From positions 1,124 through 65,123 of the IMG/VR virus record IMGVR_UViG_3300033064_003431: a DNA stretch of 64,000 bases; one strand, given 5' to 3'. Origin of the DNA: a virus (lineage: Duplodnaviria > Caudoviricetes). The translations under genes and the position numbers were made by a program. How positions within the stretch are numbered: position 1 is the first letter of the stretch; each line of letters starts with the position of its first letter. Positions 2,330-52,093 of this stretch are shown one piece after another. A model generated the notes under the pieces. The model did no database searches, was not told the origin of the DNA, and saw only the letters and a program-made list of their open reading frames with translations.

Positions 2330-2336
2330 TATTTAA

Positions 2337-5814: not shown

Positions 5815-5834
5815 GATTAGTCATATTATGATCG

Positions 5835-5866: not shown

Positions 5867-5887
5867 TACTACAGGACATGGAGCGTT

Positions 5888-31100: not shown

Positions 31101-31276
31101 TTTTCCCACTCAAAAGGATCACCACTATTTAAAAGCTCATATGTGAAAGAGTTGTTGGCGCCAATAGATGATAAAACAGTATTATAGGTAGATACTGCTC
31201 CATTGAGGATCATGCTACCATTACCCGTGGTACTTGTTGTTTCTTTCACTCTGTTAGCAAAATATTTGATCGACAT
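28115..31276 (-). CDS. tail fibre/spike with YadA-head-like repeats and C-terminal intramolecular chaperone (peptidase S74)
   Basis: N-terminal ANRVKETTSTTGNG, G-x-x-N beta-roll repeats (AIGNNN, ALGYGN, AVGQSN), and C-terminal SSRRFKDRI...LKPVYY...GFIAEDI...LVNSIKEL. Confidence 0.88.
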   Translation of the reverse strand: MSIKYFANRVKETTSTTGNGSMILNGAVSTYNTVLSSIGANNSFTYELLNSGDPFEWENGVGHITNSGGITTFVRDRVIKSSNSNAKVIFSAGTKTLTTAITEDIINNGFLNVEHTGVSFSPPYMPATYILDATAANITVSLPTVDGQIDPIIMGFLLNDTTNDDQNQTDAVVLDPSGAQTISGQSTYSLSIRNDYVQIVSVPSATGWLVLDSIQDSMNAYGNDGLIQFSNSGAFSGVNGLKWDLSSSSLLVGGTGILASADIILPTGTQTVVFNEQSKDKDFRIEGSGISHLLFVDAGLGNIGINTSSPLDKLHIVHTGTVGNTGVTIHSSGLGPTVVLSNTALSGSLTNDRLGSVFFNASGLSYAKLYASADSQLTGIEQASAYIEIINNGISQTALSLRPTSTTIGINNTNTSGVIVGKDCANSGNNVLLGNTNTSTGVTNSTMIGNNHTIHSGSLSCGVVGQGHTVGGTGIFIIGGTGIALSGAIYKDNTYLVADADHYISISTTGVVSLSSKLNANTKLSILNKTPTPTSGIAQSVSLEFLNTSGVIKTGLALTSNIHQTTAGNEYSKFSANIMVGGVVKPVIQIQDNQVLIGDAGLSGINVGYGLNNSSAGGTGTIIYGQNIVSSGNTNVLIGRDIICSGTNSTIFGRANECLPSGDLGVVILGNSNSASEAFGVAIGNNNHNSGLYSVSCGSYNGAYNDYSVALGYGNTVQGTVAGGSVAVGQSNTVTTSGVDAIGFAVGLGNNIVVSGTGVAIGYQNSVKGKGGVVIGRSCAATGIDNFIVGFNCSTTTGNNNFLMGKNLNWAGSDTYLTSHTNIQFLATADIFASGANIDLHKNNTDMISLITTGINILHTGSVYISGGLGANISSTGVVAMYGNTISMTGSSLVGLSTNNLHSINISTSGINVLSSGLGHPISVSGNLLTINCQSGIQYLNRPIGVGSSLVVDTSNILRETSSSRRFKDRITDYDKGISDLVQLKPVYYNFLNQDKQLAGFIAEDIADQGLEEFVIRDENNMVKDINYMGMISLLVNSIKELHQEILLLKNRT

Positions 31277-37300: not shown

Positions 37301-40300
37301 AGGTTCTGTCGAACCAGAGGGGTCGCTAGGTCCCAAGCGGACAGGGACAGTGCTCCCGACGGGTCGGGCAAGCAGTTGATTTCGTTTTCTTTCCCACTCT
37401 TTCCTTTCAGCAGGCGTAAGCCCTGAGCCTTGAGCACCCTCATAACCCAACCCTTGTTTAACAAGATTCGTTATATCTCCCCTGCTCTCTTTGTATACCT
37501 CTCCTTTACGACCTTGCTCTTGTAATTGACGCTGGCCATCCGATTTGGCATCGCTACTCTCGTTCAATACATTTGTCATTCCAGGGGTTTGTAATATCCC
37601 CTGTTTTCTAACTCCTATTAAACTTTGTAAGATATTTTGTCTATGAAGAACATCCTTAACCTCTGTAGTATTTACAGCTTGTTCTGTTATATCTGCGTCT
37701 CTTTGTGATCTAGTCTCAAAGAGAGCTCTCTGTGTTGGTGAGAGATTTGCTTGAGCAATTAGAGACATTTGCTCTATCATATTGCCCGGTATGTTAATTA
37801 TCCCCGGTGTTTTTTCCCATGTATTTATCTTAGCAAAGTCATCGGCTATTGTGGTAGCTTCACCCGGAGTCCTAATCCACTTAAGAAATCCATCAACATC
37901 TTTGGTCTTTTTATTACTATAAAGATCTCTGACAATTTGATCTGTTCGTACTTCGTTAGCAGACTGCTGTTCACGCAAACCCTTGTTCTCCAGAGTACCA
38001 TCTTTATATTCTCTCGGACTCTCTCTCTTATCTAAGGCTAATTGTTCTCTAGCTCGTTTTTCACTAGGTTGAGCTTGTTTTTTAACCCATCTTCTAACAG
38101 TATTAGTAATGGGTACCCGTAAATTCTCATTTGAACGACCGTTGCGTGTTGAACCCTCTTCTTGTCCGAATAGACTCCGTTCTTGAGTTTTATTCATATC
38201 TCGAATCTTAACTAATTCTAGAATATTGTCTATATCTGGGGTTAAGTTCTTAATAATATTAGTAGCATTGCCTTGTGCCTGTATTTTTCTCTTAGGATCT
38301 TTAAACCGGTACTGAGTATCTCCAAAGGCTTCTAAACCCAGATGAGAATCTATAGCAGCAAAAATCTGTGGGGTTTGAGATAACATTGTGGTAAAATCTA
38401 AGCCTTCCAAATTCTTGTTGTTTGTTTTGTCTCTATAATTAAATTCACCTATATATGGTCTTAAGAAGTGGGTCATCAGATCTTCGGAGCGCTTATAGGG
38501 CAGACTTGTCTCTCTCTGGTTTTTTATGATTGAATGAATATTACGAAACATCTGGGCAAATTTGACACTAAAGAAGGAGCCTAATCCGCCCCCATTAGCT
38601 AGTTCATTTAAATATTTCATATCCTGATTTTTGGGCTGACCGGTGATAGACGAGAGATCATTCCAAAGATTTGCTGCTATTCCCCACTTCATCTCCTGGG
38701 GAAATTCTTCACCCATAATATCTAAGGTTGTGTAATCTGGCCCCAGATCCCGCACAAAGCGTCCGGACTTATCAAATTCTTTGCGATTTTTCCGCTGAGG
38801 TACTCCTCCACTTTTCAAATAAACTACCCCACCATTCTCGTATCCTTGGGCCCCACCGTTGATACTCTTTAGCAAAGGAAGGTTTTTCTGGGTGGCCGCT
38901 CGATTGACCACAAATTCCCCCGGAGTAAGCATCGCTGGCACAGTATCAGTGCCTCTTGGTTGAAAATTAATTAGTGCTCCATTGCTAGCATAAACAACTC
39001 CACCTGAGCTATATTGTTCTGGCCCAAATATAGTTGACATAGACATATTTATAGCGCTATCCTTAGTCTTATCCTTACCATATTCTATTATTGTTTGTCT
39101 GGCTCTTTTTATAATTCCGGGAACGGCAGAAGAAGACGATGCGGCCACAACATTATCCATTTTAGTTATAATTGCAGTCATTGCTTCCCCTAGTTGTGAT
39201 CCAGCCGTAGCTCCTGATCGACTAAGGGTGGAGCTTGCCATATTTTTTGTTAATGTGGCGGTACCCGTTTTTATTAATTGCTCTATGGTTTTTCCTCCAA
39301 CCTTACCTACTCCCGCAGTCGCAACACTAGCTATTCCTCCTACAACATCACCAACCAGCGCCGATCTAGGATTTTCATTCATAGCTTTTTGAAAATCTTG
39401 AATAAGTGCTGTGTTTTCAAAAGAGTCATAAATAACAGAGTTTAGATATTCTCCTAGCTTCACTCCGGACATTCCTCCTCCAATCGCCCCAACAACTGTT
39501 CCGAAAGGAGGAACGGCTAAACTACCTATAGTTCCGCCGACTATGGACCCAACCGTGCCAAGAACAGCTGGTAACAGACTTTGAGCAAAGCCTCCTAATG
39601 TAGCCTGAAATTGTTCGAGCATATTTCCTTGATCTGGAGATTTCGACCAGCCTATCCAATCCGACAACCACGCAGTTACTTTATTAAAAGCCCCAGGTGA
39701 TTGTTGATCATTTTTGGTTCTTGCGTTTGGTAGTTTGGGAATTTTCATACCACCTTCAGCATAAACTATTCCTCCATTAGAAAATTCTTGTGTTCCTGAG
39801 TTTATGTTTTTTAATAGTGGCAAATTCTTTTGAGTAGCAGCACGATTTACTACAAACTCTCCCGGAGTAAGCATCGCGGGCACAGTATCCGTACCCTTGG
39901 GTTGAAAATTAATATAACTACCCTTACTAGCATATATCGGGCCCCCATTAGCATAGCCCATTCCAAAACTCCATTGTCTAGGAGGTGCTGCTGCCGCTGC
40001 TGCTGCTGCCTGTTTTTGAGCTTCTGCTGCTTGTGCTTGCGCTGCTGCTGCCCGCACCTGTTCTGCCGCTGCCTTTGATTGAGCCTCTGCTGCCGCAGCC
40101 ATTTTCTCTGCATCAGGAGGTGTGGTATTCTGTGCATCTCTTGCATCATCTCGTCCCTGTTTAGCCGCTTTGTCTGCTTGATTAACATCAGCTATAAGCT
40201 GTGCTGCCTCTTGTACTTTGTTATAAAAGTCTAGTCCAGCACTAACTACCCCAGCTTTAAATGCAATGCCAGCAGCATCGAATCGACCAGCAGTAATATC

Positions 40301-43300
40301 GTTGGCCTTGGCTTGGCGCTCTGTGGCCTCAATGAACTTGGCTGTAGCTTCTTCCATCCTAGTATCACCCTCATTATTATATCTAAAGATTTTTAGAATA
40401 GCTTCTGGGGTGATCTGCCCATTGGTTTCTTTGCTCAGACCTTCTGCGCCCCTTGTAGCAAATTCTAATCTACTCGCTTTAGCCTCTTCTGAAGTCATGC
40501 TCAGTTCTCTATATTTCTGACCCTCAACAGCATCCTTAAAATCTGATCTTGAAGCAGTTCCCCTCATGACTCTATCAAGACTATTCGCTTGATTAATAAC
40601 ATTATTCTGATACTCTGGATTATCTATATTAGTCATAAGCTCTAGCATTTTGTCTTGTGGACCTTTATAAGACATTTCTAGATCTTGTATTCTACTCAAA
40701 GCACTACTAGCTCTGGTAGTATCTGTGGCTAGTTTGCCTAGTGCCTTGGCTAAATTATCGCTTTCTTTTTTTAATCCAACAAACCTATCAGTAGCTTTAT
40801 CTCCAGCTCCACCTTTTCCAGGCTCTATGCCTGCTTTAGCATCTGCTGCTACAGCATCCCTCATCTGTGTTTGAGCCTTTGGTAGATCGTCGTCTAACCT
40901 GTCTAACCTTCTACCAATCTCTGCTGCGTCTGTGGTTGATCCACCACCTAATGTTGGAGTATTGGTTAATGAGGCTATAATATCATTAAGAGGTTTACTT
41001 TGTTGATCTAATGATACATTTTTACCCTGGGCTTTTGCTAAACTATTTGCCCCTTCTGTTCTAATGTTTTGAGCCGTATTCCTATATTCTTGAGCTTTAC
41101 CAAATGCACCTGAGGCTTTTATCGCTTCTCCTGTCATAGCTTCTAGAGCATCATTAAGGGCTCTTGCTTGTTCTTGTAATACCTTGAGACCAGCTGCGCT
41201 CTCAGTGGTGGCCGCTACCATCTCCGCCATCTTGTTTATGCCCGCTATGCTTGTGTCTGCTGCTCCACTACCTCTAGCTTGCTTAATGGTGTCCATTACA
41301 CTAGCAACTCTTTCAGACGCCTTTGTTGGATCTGATAGATTCGCCGCTTTAAAAGCCTCTGTTAGTTTTTGCTCAATCTCGTCATCAGGATCCGAGAGAC
41401 CAGGATTTGCTGCTGCATCAGCCATAATCTTCGGTAGTTGATGAACTAATATTTGGTTAGCCACAGCACTATCTGCTAAGGCATTTGATACCTCAGGAGG
41501 CATACCAGCTTGGTTGCCGGTCTGTGTGGCTGCTGCTCTCACTTCCGTTGCCGAGTATGCTCCAACATTGCCCAACACAGCTTCGTTGGTTCTATCTACT
41601 GTGAAAGTACCCTCCTCTCCAGCTTTAGTACCCACTCTATTTCTGGTCATAGCAATAGAAATACCCATTTCTTTCGAGGCTCTACTGATAGAATTTGACA
41701 GAGCAGTCATCTGTGCTACAAAACGATCTGTTTCGTTATTTAATTCTTTGAGTTTTCTGTTTGCATTCGTTGTAGCAAGTATCGCGGCATTTCTTTCTGC
41801 CTTCTCAACCCGTACTGACTCCACTACTCTCTCTGTGGTCTGTATTAGTTCATTTTCTGCGTCTGTTAGCGTGGATGTACCATTTGTAGTATCTTGTTGT
41901 TGTTTAGCCTGGGCTTTCTGATACTTCTCATCAGCCCCCTCTCCAAAGACCATGTTTGTTTCTTTAGCCATTCTTTCTGTTTTTTGTATATCCGTTTCAT
42001 CTATACGATTTGGTTGAGCTGTTTCAGCGGTGATATATGCCTCTTGATCAAGCCTACTTTTTGCATCCTTCTCTAACTTTCCTGCCCTATCCCTCTTTGG
42101 TTGGGTTGGATTCGCTGTATTATATTCAGCATCTTCTTTTCTAGCTTTTTCTAAAACTTTTTTAAGATTATCTTCTTCTTTAATGTCTATTTCATATTTA
42201 TTTTTACCTTCTTTTGTTAGCATACGACTTTGGGTTCTAATAGCTCCTTCTTCCAGAGGCATCCCTTGACCTGAATAATATATCTCTCTCGCTCTTCCCG
42301 TCAGCTTTTCACCAGCCTTCACGGTGCTTCTAATATCATTCGTATCTCCATATATCTCAGTGCGAATACCAGCCATTTTGGTTTCACGATCTAATAGTTG
42401 TGGAGAATTTCTTATGTTTTGTTGTTGTGTCTCACTTAGCGAAGAACTGCCCCTCCAACTAGAAACTGCTGCTAGGGTACCAGCGACACCTCCTAAGGCA
42501 AATTTGAGAGTGAGCAAACTCCCTACGCTGGCTAAGATTCTTGCTGTCCAAGAAGTAGTTGCCGCAGCAGCAGTAGTACTTGCGGCAGCAGAGGCTTCGG
42601 CAGCAACGGTTGTTGCTCCCGCACCAGCAGCAGCGGTTTCCGCAGCAACAGCGCCACCTCCCACAACGGCAGTTGGTATAGCGGCTACAGCAACAGCAAC
42701 AGAGCCAGCCACTACAGCCGTTACGGCAGCTACCCTAGAAACTGTTTGTAACGCCTTATCTACACCATCTTGTTTTTCTGTAACCACATCCCCCCACGTT
42801 GTGGGATTCCAAGTTTTGTTCAATTGTGAGAAAAACGTAGCAAACATTCCTATGTTAGAATTACCACCTTTATCAATGGCAGTAGTCATACCTTTCGCTG
42901 CATACACCACACCACCAGTTTTATATTTTCCAGAATTAATACTACTCAATAGTGAGGAGTGTTTACTAGAAGCCTGTTTATTAATAACAAACTCCCCCGG
43001 AGTAAGCATCGCGGGTACAGTGTCGGTGCCTTTTGGTGCGAAATTCACACCATCAGAACTACTACCACCCCGACTTCTATAAACAACACCACCAGAGCTT
43101 TGACCTGATGCTGATTTCATCGCTCCTAAGGCTGTTAATAGGGCAATTACAAATGATCCCGCAGCATCAGCAGCATTTTTAAATTGAGTGCTCAAAAGAA
43201 GGGTACTATTTTCCAGAGGTGTTCCGATCTCACTAGCCATTGCCCCCAAATTGTCACGCATCTTATTCATCACATCATTAACGCTCTCTCCTGGAGCTAG

Positions 43301-46300
43301 TTTCAGTTCTGGTCCTGAGACCTTAGCAGCTTCTTTATCAAATGATTCTCCGCTCTTAGCCATCCTTGCTGCGGAATTTTTAGCAGCTTGGGTGTCTGCC
43401 CCAGAAACATAAGAACTAACCCCCTGAGTAATCGCAGTAGTAGCCATTGCTACCCCTTGTCCAGTCTTTCCCAACCCAGCCTGTGCAGCCAGCTTTTGGG
43501 TTCCTAACATAGCGGGTCCAACATCTTTCATCGCCTGAATCATACCTGCCATAGCTGGTTGTGCCGCTGTTACTTCGTCTATCATGCTTGCTATTGCGTT
43601 GCCTGCGGCTGTGGTGATAAGACCGAACACCACCATAGGGCCCCCCAACCCTTCTACTACTTCCCCTATTTTTGTTTTTAAAGTATCAAGACCCTTTTGT
43701 AAAAAGGAGGTCTCTAGGGGTTTTGCTGGTTTATCAAAAGCCCCGCTAGCTTGTTTCTCTACCAACCTATCTTTTAGCTCTGCCTTCGTAGTTTCGAGTT
43801 GATCAGCATCTCGAACATCGGGTCTGACTGATGGATCAAACGTGTCTCTCGTCCTACTCTTGGGACCCGTTAAACCCTCACTCTCTGCAGCGTGTTGTTT
43901 TGCCGCCCCTACTCTGTTATCGTATGTTGTGGCGGAAGTTACAGCAACAGCGGACAGAGCCTTAATACGACTCTGTTCGGCCGTATTTCCAGCGCTAATA
44001 CTTCTGGCCATAGACTTTAGAGCTGCTACTACATCTGTGGTGCCCTTGCCCGCATCATAAAGTTGCATTGAGAGAGCATCAAAAGCATCCGAGTTCTTTT
44101 TCATGGCCGCTCTTACTATTGCCGCATCCTTTTTACTCATGCTGGTCACTGCCGTATTTACCCTGATCTGATTCTGAGCAATAGCCTCTCCACCAATAGC
44201 AAAGTGTTGAACTCCACCCACAACTCCACCCCGAGCAAATCCCTGAATCTTATCAGCATGATTCATTCGTGCTAGTTTACTATATCCAATACTCTGAGCG
44301 GCCTTTTTATTAATAACAAATTCACCCGGAGTTAACATAGCGGGCACAGTATCTGATGCTGCCCCACCCTTAGCAAATTTTTGTCTTGAGATACCAGCAG
44401 ACCCCAAAAGATCTGTTAAAGTGGATTCTAAAATTAAATTTAAATTATTGTCAAGATTGGGAATATTCTGTACTAATGTTGTTAAAAATTCTTCCTTACC
44501 ACTATCTTCCATCCTGTTAATCCTTGTTTGATCTACTTTACTATTTAGAAGAGCTTTATTAATTTCTGGATTAAATGGTTTAAAAGTTCTAGCCTGTTTT
44601 AAATCCTCTCCCTGTTGTCTAACCTTAGACATAGCCTCAAAACTCTCTTTTTCTTTAGCATCTAAGCTGCCTCTTAGCGGTACCATAGAGCGGAATAATG
44701 AATTTATTTTATATTGTCTTCCATATGCCATATCTGCACTATTATAATTAAGTCCAGGTAAAGCATCCACAGCATTAGCAACATCATCATTGTCCCCTTC
44801 AAACAAACCGGACACTTTAGTTTTATATTTATCAAAAGATTCTGGAACTTTAGTTCTTAAAGAATTAAATACTTGATGGGTTAATTCGTGATATAAGACA
44901 GAGTTAGGGAGTGCGGGACTAGTCTCCGATGTGCTAAAAGATAAGGCTCCCCTACCAGTTTCTTTTACCTTTGATTGTTTAACTTTTCTAGCTGCTTGTG
45001 CCGCTTCGATTCGTAAATCTCGTATTTCTCCTAATTTTAATCCTAAGGCCGCTTCTTTGTCCCACAGTTCAGCAGCCACTTTAGGATCGTGACTTGAAGA
45101 GGATATAGTCTGCATTAACTTATCACTATTCTCTTTTACTAAAGCCCTGTATCCATATAAGTCTTGCTCATTTTGTGCAGTCCAACCAAAATTAGCTAAT
45201 TCTGTTGCACCCACACCAAAACTTCCCATAGCCTCTCTATCAAAAAAAGCGTTAGGTTCTGCTTCTGAAGGGGCCTCAAAATCAATTAATTGTGGTAGAA
45301 TAGATGTTAATGATTCTCCAGGAATTCCTATCGCTTTAGCAAAGTTTGCCATATCAGAAAATAAAGAATCTCTACTAATTTGTTTGGTAAAACTAGATAT
45401 AAAAGCAGATTTATCTAGTGGTTTTTGATTGAACTGATCTTGAACAGCCTTATCGTCAACAATAACCCTTTCATTTTGCATAGTGTTTGGGTCTGTGAGC
45501 GCTCTTTGTATTGTTTTCATCTGCTCTGATGTATACTTTTCTTTTACAGATGCTGGGAAACTCATTTCTCCGGTTCCAAAAACTGATTCTGGCACGAGAC
45601 CACCAAGAGCAAGCCTTTGAACCATGTTTGGATTATTAATATCTGATGGACTCTTAGTATATCCAGTTTGTAATATCCAAGAATCATCTGTTGTTGGTGG
45701 CCATGTTTTAGGATCTGGACTAGCAAATTTGCTTTGATCAAACCATTCTGGTCCATCATACCAGCTTGGTGGAGATAGTGGTGTTTTATTAACATCTCCA
45801 CGATTTTTAAAATAATATTTCCATACATTAAATGCCGAGGCACTAACTCTATGTCTATCAGAGACTAATTGATTTCCACTTTGTGTGACCCCCTCCATTA
45901 CAGCATCATATAATTTAGGGCCGTATCCACTAGTAGCAGAAGAGCTTTGCACAGAGAACAAAGGAGCAGACCCTAGCTCTTGCAACCTATCTGCTACGAC
46001 CTCTCCACTAGCATTAGCATCGGGTAAATATTTAGCACTAACTCTTCCTGGTTTAATTGTTAATCCTATTTTTGCAGCTTGTTTGATCTTGTTCTCTTCT
46101 GTGACTCCTCCTACTGCATATCCCCTGATCGCTCTCTTAATCGCTAGCATATTTTCAGCTGGTGATAGCGTTGGAGTATAAGCAGCGTCTGAAGGCCCCT
46201 TTAGTTTTGCTGCTAAAGCTAATTGAGCAGGCGTAGAAGTCTTAAATGATGGTTCTTTCAAGAGTTCTGCTAGTGCCTTGGGATCAGTTTTAATTCCAGC

Positions 46301-49300
46301 CTTAGAGTTTTTCTGTGCAACTCTTTTAGCTAAATATGTTTTAAATTCTTCTAGACCATATCCAGCGCTATTAGCAAATTGTACAATACTACTGGTCTCA
46401 TTCTTTAGACCATTCTGTTCTATAAGACCATATACTTCTTGTCCTAGTTTTTCTACCTTGCTGCCATTAGCAAACTTTTGTATCATGCCGCCACCGCTCT
46501 TATTCATACTCTGCAAGTTATTAACGCCAAGAGTTTCCACAGCCTTTTTACGAATAACAAACTCTCCCGGCTCTAACATTGCTGGCACGGTATCCCCACT
46601 ACCGCTGCCCGGTACAAATCCACCACTAGCAAACTTGTGTATCCTGCCCCCAAGATTCTTACCTACTGGAACCGGCTCTGGCTCTGCAACCGGCTCTGGC
46701 TCTGGAAATAAATATCTGGTAAATTCGCCTATTGCTTTGGCCCTGCTTTTAGAATCAATAGTTCTTTTAACTTCTGTGGGCATACTACTAGTAATACCTG
46801 GGAAAAAACTCGTAGCACGACCGCCTAACCCATTTGGATAATCTATGGCTCTAGTAGCTGTAGCATCCTCTACTATTGGGGCCCCAAACACAGCCATTGC
46901 TTGTTCTATAACAGCCCCTTCGATATTAGCTTGGCCAGTGGCCATACTCGTATTCTGAGATAATTCCGACAGACTCGGGGAGTATTGTACACCTTTCATG
47001 CCAGCTTTTCTGACTCTCTCAATAGTTTGAATATTATCGTCTACCAGAGTTTCATCGGGTTTTAAATTCTTAGACTTGTCCGCTCCATTCATTCCGGTAA
47101 TTTTATCAGCTGGAATATTTAATCCTAGCTCTGCTAATCTTTGAGCTATTAGAGCCTCATTATTTGGTGGCCTAGCTGTTGATATTCTAAGATTCTGTAA
47201 TAGTTCTGGATATTTTGTTAATTTATCTTTTAAATCAATTCCAAGAGGAGTAAGCTCTCCCTTCTTTAATGCTTCTCCTACTCTCTTGGTATCAGAATAT
47301 CCTAAAACATCAATATTACCCTTAGCGTCATAAAGATCTGCTCCTGTAACTAAAGTTTGGTCAAAATCATATACCATCTGCTGACCAGAGCTCAGGCCAC
47401 CCGTAGTGATTTCGCTCTGTAAATCAGTAGCAAGCTGCCTAACAGTGTCTGTTGAGCTAGCTTGCATTTTTTCTACCATTGGCTTAAATCTTGTTGGCAA
47501 TCCTCTTTCATGTATTACAACATCCCTACCCTGAATATCAAAGGGGCCCAAGTCCTCATCATGATCATAGGGTAATAGTCCTACCAAACCCACCTGAGTT
47601 GCCGCTGCGGTTCTCCTAGCTAATCGAGCTGCTTGAATCTCTTTATTAGAATTAAATTTTTCTAGGAAATAATCTCTAACAGCACCATACGAGGCAGCTT
47701 TGTCAGCGCTCATCGATCCATCATAATTAGCTCTCCATGTTTGTCGGACCATACCGGCCGTAATATCCACACCACTAAACTGACCGAACTTAAGATCCTC
47801 TGGCATGTTTGAACCTTGGAGCATAGAGGATATTTCTGCAGCCGTGGCTCCTAATGCAGACTTTGGTTTCCCTCCCGCTATAAACTTTGGATTCTCTGCT
47901 CCACCAGGATTTTTTGGCTTGCTTTTAGCAGCAACTATTCCTTGATCTCGCACAGACTCTCTAACAGCTCGGCTTAGGGTACCATCTGGTTGCAAACCAT
48001 AAGTCTCGGGATATCTTGCTGCCAGATTACGAAGAATACCAAATGGTTCAAAACTAGCTCTAGAATTGATCTTATCTCGACGATTACGCAACTCTTTTAC
48101 TTGATCCGCCATTGCTGCATACTCTGGGTCTGATGCTACTTTTTTGCTCTCTATTCTTTGTGGGAGAGCAGCTAACTCTTTTGTTATATCTGCTAATGAA
48201 TAGGCTTGTCTCTTCTTGGAGTGCTCTACTATTCTTGGTAGTATAGAAGACCTATTCTGTAATTGAGGAAGATATTGGCTCACAAGAGAAAACACATCTG
48301 GAGATAGTATTTTTTTCATTTCTTCCAGATCTCCACCCAGTATTGATTCTCTGGCCATGGTACCACTAACACCGCCCGTTCTGGGTATCTGTACTGGCTG
48401 ATAGCCTTTGTCTAAATATTTCTTTAAATTCTTGCCTTCGTCTGCTACCATCATGGCCAAGCTACCCTTTTCTGGGCGCACAAAACGTCTTTTTCCAGAA
48501 GGCCCCTGAGATATCTCCATAACATCTGGGAGCACAAATCCCCTATTGGTTTGTTTACTTACCATAGATCCTTTAAATGCAGCCTGAGCCGCTAACACCC
48601 TAAAATCCTGATCAAATACCGCCGTTCTCAAAGAGTGGGAATCTGCGGATGTGATACCCTCATCATTGCTAATCAACACCAAAAAGTCTTCTAGTGGTAT
48701 GCCCATTGCTATGGCTGCTGCTCTCAATGATTCATGACCAATGGTTGATGGAGATAAACTTCCATGCAATAGTGCTATTTTTTTCTTTTCTACTTCAATA
48801 TTTTCTTTACGTCTTAATTTATAGTCGCTGCTAATGCCCAGAGTCCTTAATTTGCTACCATCAATATCAGAACCAAGCATAGCTTCAAGTGGACCACTAT
48901 CTCTCTCGGCTCCAGATGTAGCACCAGGTTTTCTACCAAATAAATTCACCCCAGTAGTATCTCTTGACTCTCTTCTTCTTTTAAGCTCTGTTTGCTCTTC
49001 TTTGGTAGAAGTAGACAGTATATATATCTTATCTGACATTTTTAAATAGTCATCAAGTTTTTCTGGCGTAACGGTTGAAGTAGTATCTATAACCTCTGAG
49101 GCTAATTTAATATCTTCTGGTCTTAATATGGGGAATCTCGTGGTGCGTCTAAGTTTGGCATTATCTGAGGCTGTGCTTTGTGAACCCCCCAACATCAAAG
49201 AGCTTTTGCCCGAGCCTGCCATGCCCGCAATAGTTCTGAGTTTAGCTAAAGATCCCTCTTTTCTTGATGACGCAGCAAGCTTGGATAGATACGCTTTATA

Positions 49301-52093
49301 TGCACTTACGTCTGTGAGGTTAACGCCCTGCATAGCCGGGCCCACTACCTCTTGATTCACTGGGTCTCTGAGCACATCAGTATCTATATATCCCACTTTG
49401 CGCTCTGCTATTCCTCCTGCCATGAACTTTTGAACTTTACCACCCATATTTTTTAGGCTGGCATAAAATTCTTGCTTGTGTGAAGTTCTTGTTTTTCGGG
49501 TCCCAGACCCTATTCCAGAATAATATTCTAAATTTCCTAAATTAGGATTATCTGTACTATCACTATCAAGCAATGATTCCTCAAAATATGTACCAACTTT
49601 GTCTTCGTCAATTCTTTTTGCTAATAGTTTACCAACTAATACATGGTTCGGCACCTTGTCTGATCTAAACTTTATTTCTCCCCAGTTTCCATCGGTGACG
49701 TTTGACGAGGATTGGGAAGCAGGATTGTAAGTATCAACAGGATGTGTTGGATCTGTTGACGGTGATTTTAGAGCATATCTAGCTTTTATAACTTGTTCAT
49801 ATCCTTCTCCCCACACCTTTTCGATATTTCCATACTCTTTTCCCAAATCTTTCATTCGTGGGGTGGCCTGAGATGTGGGCCGCTGGGCTAAAAATAATTG
49901 CGTCCTACCCGGTCCTGTTTTCATGATCTGCCTAAGATCTGAAGAAATCTCCGTAGCCCTATTTTTTATGACATCTATCTCTCCACTGCTTAGTGGTGCT
50001 GGAGCAGTCTCCTTATCAATATCTATAATATCGGCCGAGGCTGTATCATCATTCTCCAAGAGGGGCAGTCCGTTATTACCTAATTTCTTTTTTCCTAGTG
50101 CTACTGCTGGTTTCTGATTTTCTGCTAGCTTATCTATTCTAAACGGCCCACCTTGTGCAAGCTTTTGAACCGCCCCACCACCTGAGTATCCCCCAACCCT
50201 AATATTCCCCCCATTACTCTTATTCATCTTATGCAAGTTACTAGCACCCAGAGTATCCACAGCCTTTTTACGAATAACAAACTCGCCCGGCTGTAACATC
50301 GCTGGCACAGTATCCCCACTACCACTGCCCGGTACAAATCCACCCCTAGCAAACGCCCGCACCCTTCCCCCACCAGATAAACCGGTACCACTAGATCTAC
50401 TACTTAAAACAGCAGTTTCTAATGACTTTAGGGCCGTGGTAACACTTAATAATGCAGAAGTATTTTCTCCTAATGCCACTTGTAATCTGCTACTAGTATC
50501 TGCTGTTGCTTTTTCTTTTGCAGCAGCGGCGACCTCCTTGGTTTCTCCACCAGCAGCACCTGCGGGGTTTTTACCTAACCCACCCATAAAACCACTACCA
50601 AATTCCATCAGGGCCTTACCACCTTTGATAGCACCCAGTATAGCTAGGTATGGTAATATTGGTTTAAAAGCACCAACAATACCAATAAGTGTACTAGTAA
50701 GAGTTAGCCCCATACTAATTACATTTTGAAATGTTTTACTCTCTCCCAAAGCTCTTACCAAACCCAAGAATTCTTCTTTGGTCTTTGTAAACTGTACTGC
50801 TAGTGCAGATTGTGCTTTGGCTGCGTCGTTACCCAAACTACCAGAGCCCTTCTGTGCTACTGCTAGGGCAGCTTGTGCTGTGGCGAATTCTTGAATAAGG
50901 GGGATGACCTTACCAATTTGGCGAAATCCACCTAGCTGTTCTACTATATTACCAAATCTTAAATCTCTGGTATCTAAACCAGCTAATCCTTCACTAAGCC
51001 TTCGCACTGCCTCATATGGTCCAACGAACTTCCCCTCTAGATCTGTGAGTTCTATACCATATTCTCTCAGGGCTGCTATAGTACTTCCTCTTTGAATTCT
51101 GGTAAAAATAGTTCTAAGACCAGTAGCAATAGTTTCTGCGCTTTCACGAGTTGTGGCTCTAACGCTAGTAAAAACAGCCATAAATTCGTTTAGGGCTTGA
51201 GTACCAGAGCTAACTCCTTTACTGGCGCTAGCAAATACTCCTCCGGTACGTTGAATAGCGGTAATTATATCTGCGGATTCCACAGCAAAAGCTGCTGCTA
51301 CCGCATTAATAGATCCTAGCGCCCCCTCCAAATCTTTAGTGGCTATACCGAACTGTCTCATCGCAGCAATCGCACCTTCTGTTGTTTCTGCCATAGTATC
51401 AAAAGACGGTGCCAAAGCAGACTTGGCCAAAGCTTCAAGGGCTATTCTAGTTTCATCAGCCGATAAACCAGCTTGGGCTAATGTGGCACTCACAGTAATC
51501 AATTCAGACGAACTCACACCAAAAGTAGTAGCTAATCTTGTTACCTCATCTCCCAAACCTTTAACAGAGGCTGCTGATCCTCCTGTTACCTGCTGCAATC
51601 TTACCATTTCTCTATCAAAATTTACAAATTCCGCAAAAGCACTAGACAGAGCTCTTGAGAAACCATAGATAACTCCTGTGACAAGGCTAAAAGCAGCGAA
51701 TCTTCTAACAGCTAATGCGCTTTGTTTACCAAACTCCGCCATTTCAGAAGACGCTTTACTAACTGCTGCTGCCGTAGACGCTGACTCTGTTTTTATCTTA
51801 GATATACTTTGGGCCGCTTGGTCGGAGGATGCCGAGACCCTGGATGAGACAGAACTAATACTGGACATTGTGCTAGATAGTTTTACGGCGTTGGAGCTGG
51901 CCTCTGTGAGCGCCACACTTAGCGCCTGAACGCTCGCTGTGACTCCTCGAATATTATTAGCAGCGTTATTAGAAATAGATATTTTAAGATCTGTTTTAAT
52001 AGCAGATAACTCTCTGCGTATATCTGCAACCACGGTTTTTAGATTCGCCGGGCCCTGTATGTTTATTTGTGCTGTTAAATTAAAAGCTGCCAT
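31304..52093 (-). CDS. giant (6929 aa) tail tape measure protein carrying multiple enzymatic cargo domains
   Basis: The N-terminal ~500 aa is a TP901-type tape measure core (FDREMVRLQQVTG...LATTFGVSS.E...LAQAG...SAETIATGLRTIFTRI). It lies after tail tube and chaperone genes, has nine DTVPAMLxxGEFV modules, and has an AGGAG RBS. Confidence 0.93.
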   Translation of the reverse strand: MAAFNLTAQINIQGPANLKTVVADIRRELSAIKTDLKISISNNAANNIRGVTASVQALSVALTEASSNAVKLSSTMSSISSVSSRVSASSDQAAQSISKIKTESASTAAAVSKASSEMAEFGKQSALAVRRFAAFSLVTGVIYGFSRALSSAFAEFVNFDREMVRLQQVTGGSAASVKGLGDEVTRLATTFGVSSSELITVSATLAQAGLSADETRIALEALAKSALAPSFDTMAETTEGAIAAMRQFGIATKDLEGALGSINAVAAAFAVESADIITAIQRTGGVFASASKGVSSGTQALNEFMAVFTSVRATTRESAETIATGLRTIFTRIQRGSTIAALREYGIELTDLEGKFVGPYEAVRRLSEGLAGLDTRDLRFGNIVEQLGGFRQIGKVIPLIQEFATAQAALAVAQKGSGSLGNDAAKAQSALAVQFTKTKEEFLGLVRALGESKTFQNVISMGLTLTSTLIGIVGAFKPILPYLAILGAIKGGKALMEFGSGFMGGLGKNPAGAAGGETKEVAAAAKEKATADTSSRLQVALGENTSALLSVTTALKSLETAVLSSRSSGTGLSGGGRVRAFARGGFVPGSGSGDTVPAMLQPGEFVIRKKAVDTLGASNLHKMNKSNGGNIRVGGYSGGGAVQKLAQGGPFRIDKLAENQKPAVALGKKKLGNNGLPLLENDDTASADIIDIDKETAPAPLSSGEIDVIKNRATEISSDLRQIMKTGPGRTQLFLAQRPTSQATPRMKDLGKEYGNIEKVWGEGYEQVIKARYALKSPSTDPTHPVDTYNPASQSSSNVTDGNWGEIKFRSDKVPNHVLVGKLLAKRIDEDKVGTYFEESLLDSDSTDNPNLGNLEYYSGIGSGTRKTRTSHKQEFYASLKNMGGKVQKFMAGGIAERKVGYIDTDVLRDPVNQEVVGPAMQGVNLTDVSAYKAYLSKLAASSRKEGSLAKLRTIAGMAGSGKSSLMLGGSQSTASDNAKLRRTTRFPILRPEDIKLASEVIDTTSTVTPEKLDDYLKMSDKIYILSTSTKEEQTELKRRRESRDTTGVNLFGRKPGATSGAERDSGPLEAMLGSDIDGSKLRTLGISSDYKLRRKENIEVEKKKIALLHGSLSPSTIGHESLRAAAIAMGIPLEDFLVLISNDEGITSADSHSLRTAVFDQDFRVLAAQAAFKGSMVSKQTNRGFVLPDVMEISQGPSGKRRFVRPEKGSLAMMVADEGKNLKKYLDKGYQPVQIPRTGGVSGTMARESILGGDLEEMKKILSPDVFSLVSQYLPQLQNRSSILPRIVEHSKKRQAYSLADITKELAALPQRIESKKVASDPEYAAMADQVKELRNRRDKINSRASFEPFGILRNLAARYPETYGLQPDGTLSRAVRESVRDQGIVAAKSKPKNPGGAENPKFIAGGKPKSALGATAAEISSMLQGSNMPEDLKFGQFSGVDITAGMVRQTWRANYDGSMSADKAASYGAVRDYFLEKFNSNKEIQAARLARRTAAATQVGLVGLLPYDHDEDLGPFDIQGRDVVIHERGLPTRFKPMVEKMQASSTDTVRQLATDLQSEITTGGLSSGQQMVYDFDQTLVTGADLYDAKGNIDVLGYSDTKRVGEALKKGELTPLGIDLKDKLTKYPELLQNLRISTARPPNNEALIAQRLAELGLNIPADKITGMNGADKSKNLKPDETLVDDNIQTIERVRKAGMKGVQYSPSLSELSQNTSMATGQANIEGAVIEQAMAVFGAPIVEDATATRAIDYPNGLGGRATSFFPGITSSMPTEVKRTIDSKSRAKAIGEFTRYLFPEPEPVAEPEPVPVGKNLGGRIHKFASGGFVPGSGSGDTVPAMLEPGEFVIRKKAVETLGVNNLQSMNKSGGGMIQKFANGSKVEKLGQEVYGLIEQNGLKNETSSIVQFANSAGYGLEEFKTYLAKRVAQKNSKAGIKTDPKALAELLKEPSFKTSTPAQLALAAKLKGPSDAAYTPTLSPAENMLAIKRAIRGYAVGGVTEENKIKQAAKIGLTIKPGRVSAKYLPDANASGEVVADRLQELGSAPLFSVQSSSATSGYGPKLYDAVMEGVTQSGNQLVSDRHRVSASAFNVWKYYFKNRGDVNKTPLSPPSWYDGPEWFDQSKFASPDPKTWPPTTDDSWILQTGYTKSPSDINNPNMVQRLALGGLVPESVFGTGEMSFPASVKEKYTSEQMKTIQRALTDPNTMQNERVIVDDKAVQDQFNQKPLDKSAFISSFTKQISRDSLFSDMANFAKAIGIPGESLTSILPQLIDFEAPSEAEPNAFFDREAMGSFGVGATELANFGWTAQNEQDLYGYRALVKENSDKLMQTISSSSHDPKVAAELWDKEAALGLKLGEIRDLRIEAAQAARKVKQSKVKETGRGALSFSTSETSPALPNSVLYHELTHQVFNSLRTKVPESFDKYKTKVSGLFEGDNDDVANAVDALPGLNYNSADMAYGRQYKINSLFRSMVPLRGSLDAKEKESFEAMSKVRQQGEDLKQARTFKPFNPEINKALLNSKVDQTRINRMEDSGKEEFLTTLVQNIPNLDNNLNLILESTLTDLLGSAGISRQKFAKGGAASDTVPAMLTPGEFVINKKAAQSIGYSKLARMNHADKIQGFARGGVVGGVQHFAIGGEAIAQNQIRVNTAVTSMSKKDAAIVRAAMKKNSDAFDALSMQLYDAGKGTTDVVAALKSMARSISAGNTAEQSRIKALSAVAVTSATTYDNRVGAAKQHAAESEGLTGPKSRTRDTFDPSVRPDVRDADQLETTKAELKDRLVEKQASGAFDKPAKPLETSFLQKGLDTLKTKIGEVVEGLGGPMVVFGLITTAAGNAIASMIDEVTAAQPAMAGMIQAMKDVGPAMLGTQKLAAQAGLGKTGQGVAMATTAITQGVSSYVSGADTQAAKNSAARMAKSGESFDKEAAKVSGPELKLAPGESVNDVMNKMRDNLGAMASEIGTPLENSTLLLSTQFKNAADAAGSFVIALLTALGAMKSASGQSSGGVVYRSRGGSSSDGVNFAPKGTDTVPAMLTPGEFVINKQASSKHSSLLSSINSGKYKTGGVVYAAKGMTTAIDKGGNSNIGMFATFFSQLNKTWNPTTWGDVVTEKQDGVDKALQTVSRVAAVTAVVAGSVAVAVAAIPTAVVGGGAVAAETAAAGAGATTVAAEASAAASTTAAAATTSWTARILASVGSLLTLKFALGGVAGTLAAVSSWRGSSSLSETQQQNIRNSPQLLDRETKMAGIRTEIYGDTNDIRSTVKAGEKLTGRAREIYYSGQGMPLEEGAIRTQSRMLTKEGKNKYEIDIKEEDNLKKVLEKARKEDAEYNTANPTQPKRDRAGKLEKDAKSRLDQEAYITAETAQPNRIDETDIQKTERMAKETNMVFGEGADEKYQKAQAKQQQDTTNGTSTLTDAENELIQTTERVVESVRVEKAERNAAILATTNANRKLKELNNETDRFVAQMTALSNSISRASKEMGISIAMTRNRVGTKAGEEGTFTVDRTNEAVLGNVGAYSATEVRAAATQTGNQAGMPPEVSNALADSAVANQILVHQLPKIMADAAANPGLSDPDDEIEQKLTEAFKAANLSDPTKASERVASVMDTIKQARGSGAADTSIAGINKMAEMVAATTESAAGLKVLQEQARALNDALEAMTGEAIKASGAFGKAQEYRNTAQNIRTEGANSLAKAQGKNVSLDQQSKPLNDIIASLTNTPTLGGGSTTDAAEIGRRLDRLDDDLPKAQTQMRDAVAADAKAGIEPGKGGAGDKATDRFVGLKKESDNLAKALGKLATDTTRASSALSRIQDLEMSYKGPQDKMLELMTNIDNPEYQNNVINQANSLDRVMRGTASRSDFKDAVEGQKYRELSMTSEEAKASRLEFATRGAEGLSKETNGQITPEAILKIFRYNNEGDTRMEEATAKFIEATERQAKANDITAGRFDAAGIAFKAGVVSAGLDFYNKVQEAAQLIADVNQADKAAKQGRDDARDAQNTTPPDAEKMAAAAEAQSKAAAEQVRAAAAQAQAAEAQKQAAAAAAAAPPRQWSFGMGYANGGPIYASKGSYINFQPKGTDTVPAMLTPGEFVVNRAATQKNLPLLKNINSGTQEFSNGGIVYAEGGMKIPKLPNARTKNDQQSPGAFNKVTAWLSDWIGWSKSPDQGNMLEQFQATLGGFAQSLLPAVLGTVGSIVGGTIGSLAVPPFGTVVGAIGGGMSGVKLGEYLNSVIYDSFENTALIQDFQKAMNENPRSALVGDVVGGIASVATAGVGKVGGKTIEQLIKTGTATLTKNMASSTLSRSGATAGSQLGEAMTAIITKMDNVVAASSSSAVPGIIKRARQTIIEYGKDKTKDSAINMSMSTIFGPEQYSSGGVVYASNGALINFQPRGTDTVPAMLTPGEFVVNRAATQKNLPLLKSINGGAQGYENGGVVYLKSGGVPQRKNRKEFDKSGRFVRDLGPDYTTLDIMGEEFPQEMKWGIAANLWNDLSSITGQPKNQDMKYLNELANGGGLGSFFSVKFAQMFRNIHSIIKNQRETSLPYKRSEDLMTHFLRPYIGEFNYRDKTNNKNLEGLDFTTMLSQTPQIFAAIDSHLGLEAFGDTQYRFKDPKRKIQAQGNATNIIKNLTPDIDNILELVKIRDMNKTQERSLFGQEEGSTRNGRSNENLRVPITNTVRRWVKKQAQPSEKRAREQLALDKRESPREYKDGTLENKGLREQQSANEVRTDQIVRDLYSNKKTKDVDGFLKWIRTPGEATTIADDFAKINTWEKTPGIINIPGNMIEQMSLIAQANLSPTQRALFETRSQRDADITEQAVNTTEVKDVLHRQNILQSLIGVRKQGILQTPGMTNVLNESSDAKSDGQRQLQEQGRKGEVYKESRGDITNLVKQGLGYEGAQGSGLTPAERKEWERKRNQLLARPVGSTVPVRLGPSDPSGSTEPLFRRKLAELERQETDADIEKDARELAKKEREIYTPKPKPIIPETYEDIYKPIDMSGMRSPEIQLGIAEREIYAKNLYLEEIFGLERTPSRYVYANPNAFAGIPKNKEYQNVRSPDIISTLVSQKEHDVNSIEPLEYGLKNGPLKSDVAPLGRWGYEMDDREQSVEDVINAALSLYNGFYTDTGREDKEVMDYNQALSSYIYRAKMSKWHKIEPDSEDLDRTYMMDTAGAESLIQQLATQRESRSPRNKVLAQLDNSYETTTEENKAISAQNMENDKARKEAAKQPKESASGYDAFLSDDDIRILNDIQRPFSKSMIEADNQSINLNSYLMKSGRELKPKIPTIQRLFPSQPMTRQNADNNISDFVKIISHAMGMGYKNVVISLVPDISGGLLDSGKGVTGYEGSSSTEEIIPDVFGHLDATRKRLSDPKKAVKYLSKGSHINFQPKGTDTVPAMLTPGEFVVNRAATQKNLPLLKSINSGAGTKGYQKGGVAYLKIGGETAEQWLNTSVWKDSDIWDKDTTTAFEKQDLVGIRSGSFGPSLRSPGSSSPGNYDDSQWRTLRLLIPPVFGQNPAIAMRKKRFEGAAVEAGISPLKNLWFSTDNYGGFQTKEEYTDWKIKNPKPTPIVTTPAVTAPAGTALPPNMTSVATPAGLGTSMQQMFTGLGALNPKSEPEVAAPPTVSWTPPSAGWMSRGEPMRIGGSKAENWLVPEDWPINDNPRESYLHTLWEKTTSDAFEQKMQGWNTSGQYDDVEWASLKQNISQAIDSLQPREFEKLGVQKIVSPTLGGDRLYGGRKGLTNREWIAQIRGGQVNIPNLISSIDDLKGYENMAARDDAAKVGAAVPPAAGPAPAAAPVAAVAPAAGVAVAPAAGVMAAPAPVAAPAPVVAAPPPIPYYDELTYKEAIYKGLKYRQRPFAPDRNLFKTGAKYVGGDQVNDPKLKEKMRTGYTGKEDDPDDDVEQVDGAIIARAEVFVAELKAKYYERYKLVVDRFRQQNGQGDDLSFGQYVYFPMSRESLGGWDVDADYKKIIGNNPDLDPTLLDLLNDLRYNPTTRVTGIDTRVTGGAAASAGVDEKGKPLPGIGMLGDPAGFQAYVQEMIKFKEDGLDNVMKLLGDIDPTSPPTFTDELKAGVDAFIPSLVGSNAKTRTILDSLKPQRLMTLSEMNGDSLQEMIDFPLAQLNLPLLQMAEDPNHKAEIDPIIAAILTSQALQMEWKIRQTRALAKEKIPFQRRPLVDGSENIVAAPIESQLSPQEKETTLRPPPPVRPQDRKKRPKDLQGDIGNDQLRAYKGSGSQFESSYVLYRRTLGEYNYDAMLRANGQAYINSSPNGKERRKKQDDANIEARRSQYGWPQYDPQYAQNGGPIYRSRGGSSSDGVNFAPKGTDTVPAMLTAGEFVVNREATQKNLPLLKSINGGARGYENGGVAYLKGGGEGILKQFNAVTKIGKNANKALKADDILQSLMAALNLGESGAKALLQLPSLLPSSLLSMLETRIPQLTLFNAAAGLVYKLAGAAIESDSQETGETAAIKGGLRAAEITTSLGATIAAGKAIAGNAVGAQFIGGLASKGGAWLTLLQGAYDGYNDSKAQAQGMDPVTRTFLGLASGSASSGGADTGAAVSFVRGRPLTENEDEQLAHYEATARGAMVGAIIAGPPGAIAGAAVGAASETTKVGYQVWTLWGENAKRQKKLDDQLVQIKRDIKLRQNMRINLEKLMAQRMTLEVGSIAHTNIINTINTQKKDLRDMGAEVDEDEITGRLAQAKTDTTRFGPTQMSSGGTVYASQGSHINFQPRGTDTVPAMLTPGEFVVNRASTAKNLPLLRAINNRGSYYNRGGAVKYLHDGGGPDGPSGVYNSVKLDIGDFSASTQTFLSDIKLAFKDGATSITSALGSLGNIKDSFSGLGGVTAGLTTAATLLQTNMGSLSTSLTNIATVLADIPKSIDFKVSGSIPINITVDVNGGDGLEAKLKPFSEQIFQAIEVGLKNAFPLSGITFDKTIVTD
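31772..31988 (-). repeat. TMP linker module copy 9 (aa 6725)
   Basis: MSSGGTVYASQGSHINFQPRGTDTVPAMLTPGEFVVNRASTAKNLPLLRAINN...YNRGGAVKYLHDGG. Confidence 0.95.
33005..33235 (-). repeat. TMP linker module copy 8 (aa 6315)
   Basis: YAQNGGPIYRSRGGSSSDGVNFAPKGTDTVPAMLTAGEFVVNREATQKNLPLLKSINGGARGYENGGVAYLKGGG. Confidence 0.95.
34626..34800 (-). repeat. GC-rich low-complexity Ala/Pro/Val repeat within TMP
   Basis: Encodes AAVPPAAGPAPAAAPVAAVAPAAGVAVAPAAGVMAAPAPVAAPAPVVAAPPP from degenerate 18-21 bp units. Confidence 0.8.
35808..36005 (-). repeat. TMP linker module copy 7 (aa 5380)
   Basis: YLSKGSHINFQPKGTDTVPAMLTPGEFVVNRAATQKNLPLLKSINSG...YQKGGVAYLKIGG. Confidence 0.95.
38805..39015 (-). repeat. 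TMP linker module copy 6 (aa 4383)
   Basis: YSSGGVVYASNGALINFQPRGTDTVPAMLTPGEFVVNRAATQKNLPLLKSINGGAQGYENGGVVYLKSGG. Confidence 0.95.
39750..39960 (-). repeat. TMP linker module copy 5 (aa 4069)
   Basis: YANGGPIYASKGSYINFQPKGTDTVPAMLTPGEFVVNRAATQKNLPLLKNINSG...FSNGGIVYAEGG. Confidence 0.95.
42890..43100 (-). repeat. TMP linker module copy 4 (aa 3024)
   Basis: GGVVYRSRGGSSSDGVNFAPKGTDTVPAMLTPGEFVINKQAS...INSGKYKTGGVVYA. Confidence 0.93.
44190..44385 (-). repeat. TMP linker module copy 3 (aa 2581)
   Basis: QKFAKGGAASDTVPAMLTPGEFVINKKAAQSIGYSKLARMN...FARGG...FAIGG. Confidence 0.93.
46495..46660 (-). repeat. TMP linker module copy 2 (aa 1834)
   Basis: HKFASGGFVPGSGSGDTVPAMLEPGEFVIRKKAVETLGVNNLQSMN. 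The DNA is very similar to copy 1, 3720 bp away. Confidence 0.95.
50215..50385 (-). repeat. TMP linker module copy 1 (D at aa 594)
   Basis: RAFARGGFVPGSGSGDTVPAMLQPGEFVIRKKAVDTLGASNLHKMN. Confidence 0.95.

Follow-up and report, generated by a model that had tools for sequence, protein, structure and literature searches.

Gly-Gly motifs of a giant phage tape measure protein as probable edges of a conserved joint module, a candidate site of tail protein processing

What do the short Gly-Gly motifs that recur along a giant phage protein mark, and is the chain cut where they stand? The question is raised by IMG/VR virus record IMGVR_UViG_3300033064_003431 (Caudoviricetes), of which positions 1,124 to 65,123 were analyzed; these 64,000 nucleotides, hereafter the window, make up nearly all of a 65,123-nt contig with an estimated completeness of 43%. 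A single open reading frame (ORF) at 31304..52093 on the minus strand encodes a cysteine-free protein of 6,929 aa. It encloses the whole range (44190..50385) over which a preliminary description of the sequence had reported an [FYL]-x-x-G-G motif at every domain boundary and had proposed a cleavage code that releases individual cargo proteins. Our findings indicate that the motifs are very probably the edges of a conserved joint module at the cassette junctions of a giant tape measure protein (TMP). Cleavage at these joints is a separate and more tentative matter.

Judged by its family matches, the 6,929-aa protein is a phage tail TMP with an N-terminal ruler domain. This domain (aa 143-483, 50645..51667; all module, unit and segment coordinates of the TMP lie on the minus strand) is matched by TIGR01760 over aa 143-483 (E 4.2e-25, 88.5 bits, cut-off 28.8) and by PF10145 over aa 182-376 (E 2.8e-23, 83.3 bits, cut-off 33.2), and several PHROG tape measure families also match the N-terminus. 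A hydrophobic stretch (aa 456-505, 50579..50728) precedes the first joint, the order found in lambda gpH.

The preliminary description had named ten short motifs and six YxxGG instances, and all 16 are present in the translation of this ORF, at or no more than about 15 nt from where they had been placed. Exact places are 50161 for L645 of QKLAQGG, 49426 for F890 of QKFMAGG, 46120 for Y1992 of RGYAVGG, and 45613 for L2161 of QRLALGG; QKFANGS ends at 46460. Enrichment was assessed against 2000 residue shuffles of the protein. Over its whole length, [FYL]..GG occurs 29 times against 7.56 ± 2.71 expected, and no shuffle reached 29. Within aa 570-2635, the range originally described, 13 matches were observed against 2.48 expected (0/2000), so the suspected enrichment was borne out. 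Its location is uneven. Nine module zones, 909 aa in all, hold 22 of the 29 matches (2.8 expected, 0/2000 shuffles). The remaining 6,020 aa hold 7 against 5.18 expected, a count that 501 of the 2000 shuffles reach; taken alone, the loose motif thus shows no enrichment outside the modules. In the described range, 5 matches outside modules compare with 1.52 expected (33/2000). The motif is therefore non-random mainly because it forms part of a module of about 70 aa.

The true unit reads GG-x-[VI]-x-x-[FYL]-A-x-GG and forms the edge of a module of about 65-75 aa, or of reduced copies of it. Nine copies carry the invariant core DTVPAML-x-[PA]-GEFV, at aa 594, 1834, 2581, 3024, 4069, 4383, 5380, 6315, and 6725. 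Written out more fully, the core reads G-[TS]-D-T-V-P-A-M-L-T-P-G-E-F-V-[VI]-N and leads into a short helix, and all nine copies show the looser pattern [DE]-x-x-P-A ... G-E-[FY]-V plus short helix that marks joint modules of the lambda gpH type. The upstream edge takes two forms: in modules 1-3 it is short (GG-x-V-[RQH]-x-F-A-x-GG, then 3-8 residues to the core), and in modules 4-9 it is long (GG-x-[IV]-Y-A-S-x-G-x-[LI]-N-F-x-P-[KR]-G-T-D). Downstream of the helix stands [YF]-x-x-GG-[VI]-x-Y-x-x-x-GG.

Core and edges together place the copies as follows. Module 1 (aa 572-649, 50147..50380) runs from GGGRVRAFARGG through DTVPAMLQPGEFV to QKLAQGG; module 2 (aa 1813-1878, 46460..46657) runs from NLGGRIHKFASGG through the core to QKFANGS, in which the second Gly is lost; and module 3 (aa 2570-2635, 44189..44386) runs from QKFAKGG through the core to QGFARGGVVGGVQHFAIGG. 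Module 4 occupies aa 2999-3068 (42890..43099). Modules 5 (aa 4046-4115, 39749..39958) and 6 (aa 4360-4430, 38804..39016) extend from GYANGG to EFSNGGIVYAEGG and from QYSSGG to GYENGGVVYLKSGG, respectively. Module 7 (aa 5360-5429, 35807..36016) ends in GYQKGGVAYLKIGG, module 8 (aa 6289-6362, 33008..33229) has AGEFV in its core, and module 9 (aa 6703-6774, 31772..31987) ends in YYNRGGAVKYLHDGGG.

Four further units stand alone. GGKVQKFMAGG (aa 884-894, 49412..49444), recognized by motif and break-points, opens segment B. The unit GGAENPKFIAGG (aa 1397-1408, 47870..47905) was recognized by its motif, and a break-point pile-up is absent exactly there. IRGYAVGG (aa 1989-1996, 46106..46129), supported by break-points and a structure model, lies before segment E in a linker with a predicted local distance difference test (pLDDT) value below 50. 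VQRLALGG (aa 2158-2165, 45599..45622), placed by alignment to relatives and by the model, is a decayed module, because QRLALGG plus the following LVPESVFGTGEMSF aligns to FAKGGSAQDTVPALLTPGEFV of relatives. Some of the motifs thus stem from module copies that are reduced or decayed. The idea of a free-standing five-residue code did not hold, the five residues being the edge of a module of about 70 aa whose 34-residue core is far more constrained.

The same layout recurs across the family. In 151 family proteins with 652 cores, GG was sought within 32 residues upstream and from +25 to +72 downstream, and it was found upstream of 639 cores and downstream of 638. The [FYL]..GG form stands upstream of 370 cores and downstream of 567, on both sides of 324 and on neither side of 39, compared with 93/755 upstream and 102/755 downstream of random positions. 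Family-wide, 2,392 [FYL]..GG matches were observed against 690 expected. The 1,061 matches distant from cores yield the logo GG-K-V-Q-K-F-A-x-GG-x-V, which is the stand-alone unit.

The joint module is under strong selection at the protein level. Modules 5 and 6 share 32 of 34 core residues, yet 21 of the 32 codons concerned differ synonymously, and the DNA identity is 74/102; for the in-gene copies, identity is about 94% in protein and about 73% in DNA. What selection preserves is therefore the protein sequence, while at the DNA level the repeats have eroded. The constraint on the module is much greater than a five-residue site needs.

With a profile built from the nine copies, the number of matching cluster representatives was 13,555 at E ≤ 1e-3 and fell to 3,999 at E ≤ 1e-10 and to 780 at E ≤ 1e-30. 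The top 150 of these representatives, hereafter the 150 relatives, are 935-7,872 aa long and match the profile in 3-11 stretches each; the set of 151 family proteins was used for the core and cysteine statistics. When 12 relatives were scanned with Pfam, 8 shared the N-terminal tape measure domain, 1 had EF-hands only, and 3 had no match. With the window module as query, tblastn returned 174 phage records (Gordonia 84, Mycobacterium 50, Nodularia 9, Brevundimonas 8, and others), and all module matches examined lay under tape measure annotations; the module of lambda as query returned 997 phage records, and T1-like coliphages, Klebsiella phages, and Webervirus phages are among the cultured carriers. 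The TMP of Gordonia phage ThankyouJordi, which the nine-copy profile matches three times, holds four module copies with h-A-x-GG edges that flank its peptidase and transglycosylase domains. By these sequence matches the module is conserved from lambda to actinophages.

The module is uncatalogued while being widespread in tape measures. No Pfam model covers it, and searches of Pfam, NCBIfam, and PHROGs with the modules and segments A-G returned nothing above cut-off except the N-terminal tape measure domain. The ESM Atlas gave unnamed clusters only; the nearest named cluster, with Tape_meas_lam_C in 18% of its members, scores 0.85 and serves as a lead only. A literature search, with most subscription journals outside its coverage, found no description of the motif or module.

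To locate the junctions, the TMP was compared with the 150 relatives by BLAST in 50-aa bins, and the ends of high-scoring segment pairs (HSPs) were taken as break-points. Bins that hold a core are common to 98-148 of the 150 relatives, and inter-module bins away from the module flanks to 0-45; the long stretches aa 4751-5150 and 5501-6200 are common to just 0-2. In the described range, HSP ends cluster at all three modules as well as at aa 880-890, 1990, and 2150-2160. One cassette is preceded by a stand-alone unit in relatives that differ in upstream context, and in relative P0027 the counterpart of the cassette behind QKFMAGG comes directly after a complete module instead. BLAST bins, HSP ends, and cassette contexts show the segments between joints as exchangeable cassettes and support the part of the preliminary description that places the motifs at junctions. 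Its stronger claim, a motif at every domain boundary, stood in part: all three modules in the described range and three of the four stand-alone motifs coincide with break-points, whereas the fourth (aa 1404) has no HSP-end pile-up and no motif stands at the further break-points near 1360, 1490, 1555, and 1715.

The locus architecture is equally regular. Across 64 related IMG/VR loci with 183 cores, all cores share one reading frame in 63. The exception, L030 (1-11245), has an open frame of 2,385 aa up to nt 7160, then a 576-aa ORF that carries the terminal module and starts at 9515; the 2.3 kb between the two pieces may be an insertion, an intron, or a split gene. From the last core to the stop there are 73-216 aa in 46 of 59 ORFs (204 aa in the window), and from the first core to the upstream stop 386-706 aa in 31 of 41. 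The core positions therefore give a family plan of N-terminal ruler, hydrophobic stretch, first joint, cassettes and joints, last joint, and conserved C-terminal tail. In the window this tail is aa 6776-6929 (31307..31768). Its sharing among the 150 relatives, as bin means, is 124 (aa 6751-6800), 78 (6801-6850), 60 (6851-6900), and 18 (6901-6929), and by position it would correspond to the hub-binding end of lambda gpHC.

Three cassettes of the described range probably resemble known folds or enzymes: one a GNAT acyltransferase, one a zincin, and one a combination of P-loop and HIGH-nucleotidyltransferase. The first of these is segment E, with a folded core at about aa 2006-2161 (45611..46078). 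An AlphaFold2 model of aa 1962-2198 (12-row alignment) gave a mean pLDDT of 68.1 and a predicted template modeling score (pTM) of 0.63, with a folded core at model residues 45-200 (pLDDT 61-91). All 50 neighbors listed by VIA are GNAT-fold acyltransferases or related acyl-homoserine-lactone synthases, save a few hypothetical or regulator titles; their Z scores of 5.1-6.7, spanning model residues 43-189, are below the tool's level of 8 and so are not decisive. Foldseek returned GNAT acyltransferases at E 0.02-0.15, and Pfam gave no match for the segment. In the model, the motifs around segment E lie outside the folded core: RGYAVGG (model residues 29-35) belongs to a linker whose pLDDT stays below 50, and QRLALGG (model residues 198-204) is at the C-terminal edge of the core, where confidence falls. 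The preliminary description had held that motifs inside folded domains would speak against a cleavage role; for this one modeled segment, they do not fall inside the fold.

The zincin-like segment F (44384-45598) was recognized by the sequence motif HELTH (HExxH) at aa 2402-2406 (44876..44890). It had no Pfam, PHROG, or PDB sequence match, and the window's own zincin-like block is common to 13 relatives. Cassette B (aa 895-1400, window 47894-49411, minus strand) has a Walker-A-like GMAGSGKSS at aa 957 and G-x-x-x-P-x-T-x-G-H at aa 1110-1120. A sub-threshold HIGH_NTase1_ass match (E 2.4e-4, 21.6 bits, cut-off 26.7) and a weak PDB hit, 3gmi, were also obtained, and the cassette may combine a kinase with a nucleotidyltransferase. 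The PDB sequence search of segments B and F returned nothing usable. A further segment, with no family match, holds VYDFDQTLV (aa 1574-1582, window 47348-47374, minus strand), which we take to resemble the DxDxT motif of HAD phosphatases.

The closest comparison for the joints comes from lambda. The module profile matches gpH (853 aa) at 727-785 with 17.1 bits, and in a search of the whole PDB sequence set gpH (8iyk_H, E 0.008) was the sole match. The gpH module comprises FHFATGG at 731-737 (FATGG 733-737), GEFV at 754-757, and GYATGG at 777-782 (YATGG 778-782), so that [FY]-A-x-GG units stand on both flanks of this single copy. It lies directly behind a hydrophobic stretch that starts at 683; Pfam Tape_meas_lam_C covers 627-701 of gpH and not the module. 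According to PMC12617516, the 2025 Ur-lambda paper, gpH is cleaved within this glycine-rich region once the tail has assembled, giving gpH* plus gpHC; the cleavage was described in 1983 by Tsui and Hendrix, as cited there, and the same paper reports gel masses only, with cut site and protease not determined. By our mass calculation, a gpH* of about 78 kDa corresponds to a cut at 691-730; cuts at 710-730 give 77.7-79.3 kDa and a cut at 735 gives 79.9 kDa. The only module copy of lambda therefore begins within about 25 residues of the cut. The two proteins share the module, its place behind a hydrophobic stretch (for the first joint of the window) and its place before a C-terminal hub-binding end (for the last). 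They differ in that gpH has one module and no cassettes, against nine modules and inserts of about 6,000 residues in the window TMP. The link from lambda to the joints of the window is one of position only. Four supplementary files of PMC10721106 contained no gpH peptides. Lambda gpK combines NlpC/P60 with a partial, sub-threshold Prok-JAB match (23.3 bits, cut-off 25). JAB enzymes cut after Gly-Gly. A JAB protease was dropped as a candidate for the window, on whose contig no JAB domain was found, and gpK serves as a lead solely in lambda.

Among tape measures, T5 pb2 alone has a mapped cut site; according to PMC10038345 it is cut after R1127 into pb2* and pb2C, between a hydrophobic stretch and a peptidase motif. 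The site reads NSFVPR|AEGGMMY, with GG two residues past the cut. In pb2 the cut falls before an embedded enzyme domain, a placement comparable to that of the joints in the window, and F-V-P-R resembles the conserved F-x-P-[RK]-G-T-D of the module, in which F-x-P-[RK] stands three residues before the invariant Asp. This likeness may hint at the true scissile position. Compared with module positions -8 to 0, pb2 (P0154) residues 1122-1140 show a likeness to [IV]-N-F-Q-P-[RK]-G-T-D, and modules 1 and 2 have GGFVPG. T5 pb2 and P23-45 gp96 were also considered as module carriers and were rejected, neither of them matching the module.

Other tail proteins offer looser parallels. The Tal protein of TP901-1 is reported in PMC11409707 to be cut at a glycine-rich NGGGNSGGGD ahead of the catalytic domain, with a Gly>Arg change abolishing the cut. 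TP901-1 and Tuc2009 Tal thereby share with the window a glycine-rich junction before a catalytic domain in a tail protein; they are, however, hub or fiber proteins with another motif and no DTVPAML-GEFV module. The TM4 paper calls tape measure processing common (PMC1796659). Thermus phage P23-45 gp96, a 5,002-aa TMP fused to the virion RNA polymerase, takes a working enzyme into the host according to PMC10770324, in which a term search found no discussion of processing. Unlike the window TMP, gp96 has no module and only 5 [FYL]..GG in 5,002 aa, about chance level when judged against the shuffles of the window TMP, and serves as a rough negative control. Of the polyvalent proteins of Iyer et al. 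2017, about 36% have, according to PMC5512222, zincin-like peptidases proposed to release domains. The likeness to the window family would lie in a large, multi-domain, injected protein, in the HExxH of 47 of the 150 relatives, and in a GNAT-like cassette. A difference is that the carrier here is a TMP whose junctions have a dedicated conserved module; the word "tape" is absent from that paper.

The ruler function of module-bearing chains can be gauged from Nodularia phage vB_NpeS-2AV2, whose 3,404-aa TMP (L005:10983-21197) carries its two modules (aa 997-1115) on the N-terminal side of the coiled-coil part. Its tail is reported as 795 nm, about 2.3 Å per residue. The usual figure for a TMP is 1.5 Å per residue. 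At 1.5-2.3 Å per residue, the window TMP would span 1.0-1.6 μm.

Based on these comparisons, we tentatively favor the reading that the joints are maturation or processing sites of the tape measure, while rating its chances at somewhat below even; it is plausible from position in lambda and from analogy. The chain would be made as a single polypeptide, because all cores share one reading frame in 63/64 loci, and would be built into the tail as such. It would then be cleaved within or beside the joints, as lambda gpH is converted to gpH* and gpHC, and the pieces would leave the tail separately at infection. Recognition would be by the whole module, and the scissile bond would not necessarily follow GG; the T5 precedent (FVPR|AEGG) would place it at the conserved F-x-P-[RK]|G-T-D just before the core. 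Several points weigh against cleavage. No cleavage product has been observed for the window TMP or any giant relative, and the lambda parallel is a positional coincidence within about 25 residues, taken from gel masses rather than a mapped site. T5 pb2 has no match to the module profile and is cut after Arg rather than Gly-Gly. Among the 33 other window ORFs, no peptidase family was found at E ≤ 0.1 except a sub-threshold Peptidase_S74 in a fiber-like protein; clan CE or CA cysteine proteases were likewise missing from these ORFs at that threshold, and a JAB domain from the contig, which is 43% complete. No protease able to reach nine sites within the tail lumen was identified among the window ORFs, and HExxH occurs in only 47 of 150 relatives. 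Tandem units such as QGFARGGVVGGVQHFAIGG and the 34-residue near-invariant core exceed what a protease site needs and suit a binding or structural element equally well. Modeled alone by AlphaFold2 (monomer, 57-row alignment), the module gave a mean pLDDT of 62.7, a pTM of 0.27, one helix, and no confident fold. The 795-nm tail of 2AV2 with its 3,404-aa TMP also shows that long module-bearing chains act as rulers, whatever follows. The module itself could conceivably be the cleavage device, with the invariant Asp and the Glu of neighboring modules forming a self-cutting site once three or six TMP chains are in register inside the finished tail. Such an arrangement is unlikely. Tailspike chaperone domains provide a known case of trimer-dependent self-cleavage, and a self-cutting joint would resemble them.

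A joint that is never cut and serves as a hinge or contact element is almost as likely as processing. Uncut joints would be flexible connectors that bind one partner, such as the tail assembly chaperone, the tube lumen, or other TMP chains for register, or hinges for threading the cassettes. A 34-residue core that stays nearly invariant in the face of saturated synonymous change points to one specific contact made repeatedly, and the tandem GG units unlike single protease sites, the single-ORF architecture in 63/64 loci, and the module-bearing 3,404-aa TMP of a 795-nm tail all fit. However, two lambda cryo-EM studies model only gpH residues 818-849 (PMC12617516, PMC10721106), so the module at 727-785 makes no ordered symmetric contact in the virion; the AlphaFold2 monomer fails to fold the module; and the single lambda copy at the cut region would be left unexplained. 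Further from the evidence is a Gly-Gly-specific protease, whether an in-cis zincin, a prohead protease, or an enzyme like adenain, pS273R, or PLpro, that reads [FYL]xxGG and cuts after GG at every boundary. We consider it improbable. The motif is enriched (29 vs 7.56) and HExxH is over-represented in relatives (58 sites vs 0.8 expected, about 70-fold, in 47 of 150 proteins), and PMC5512222 proposes that polyvalent phage proteins are processed by their own zincins. Nevertheless, 103 of the 150 relatives, lambda gpH, and the Gordonia TMP carry modules without an in-cis HExxH, so an in-cis zincin, absent from lambda gpH and most relatives, cannot be the general protease. The analogy to cysteine proteases also lacked support. 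In LxGG or Gly-Gly-X sites (adenain, ASFV pS273R, coronavirus PLpro) the hydrophobic residue is at P4 and Gly-Gly at P2-P1. The motif shares the Gly-Gly at a putative P2-P1 and a hydrophobic residue upstream, which would nonetheless fall at P5 if the cut followed the second Gly; the host protein is a phage tail protein without cysteine, and no cysteine protease family was found among the 33 other window ORFs at E ≤ 0.1. The loose motif is moreover at chance outside modules (7 vs 5.18), one downstream unit is GS rather than GG, and the four break-points noted above are motif-free. It is very improbable that the junctions are recombination scars only, serving DNA-level cassette exchange with no role in the protein. 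Relatives do swap cassettes exactly at the joints, but the copies, at 94% protein identity, have drifted to about 73% at the DNA level, synonymous changes affect 21 of the 32 codons for identical residues, and conservation of the module reaches from lambda to actinophages.

A conserved, uncatalogued module at the cut region of lambda makes the cut-site question of 1983 experimentally approachable. Thousands of TMPs share the module, and in giant ones a copy stands at each cassette junction. Were the joints cut, giant TMPs would deliver sets of finished enzymes and hold a large stock of unrecognized early-acting phage proteins, here with GNAT-like, nucleotidyltransferase-like, and zincin-like segments. 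If they stay uncut, the module would still be a widespread, unrecognized tail-assembly element that merits a family model. If the module cuts itself, lambda gpH would become gpH* without a separate protease, and the giant TMP would be a true polyprotein that becomes, within the tail, a dozen cysteine-free proteins fired into the host before the DNA.

The composition of the TMP is unusual. It contains no cysteine, compared with 1.66% (179/10,810 residues) in 16 other window ORFs, and the 151 family proteins have 35 Cys among 622,633 residues, with 131 of them cysteine-free. His (0.51%) and Trp (0.66%) are likewise scarce in the TMP of the window. A search for the closest cultured relatives with the N-terminal 650 aa as query returned only 2 phage records, both weak. 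ORFs upstream of the TMP had no family match. Downstream, a 1,053-aa ORF (window 28115-31276, minus strand) has tail fiber PHROG matches, and its C-terminus gives the sub-threshold match to Peptidase_S74 (E 0.0023, 18.6 bits, cut-off 22). Peptidase_S74 is a self-cleaving chaperone domain. The left part of the window encodes SSB, glycosyltransferases, and a DNA polymerase III alpha split by an intein. The polymerase lies in two ORFs (window 283-5361, plus strand), the second with an intein splicing domain and an HNH match within the finger region.

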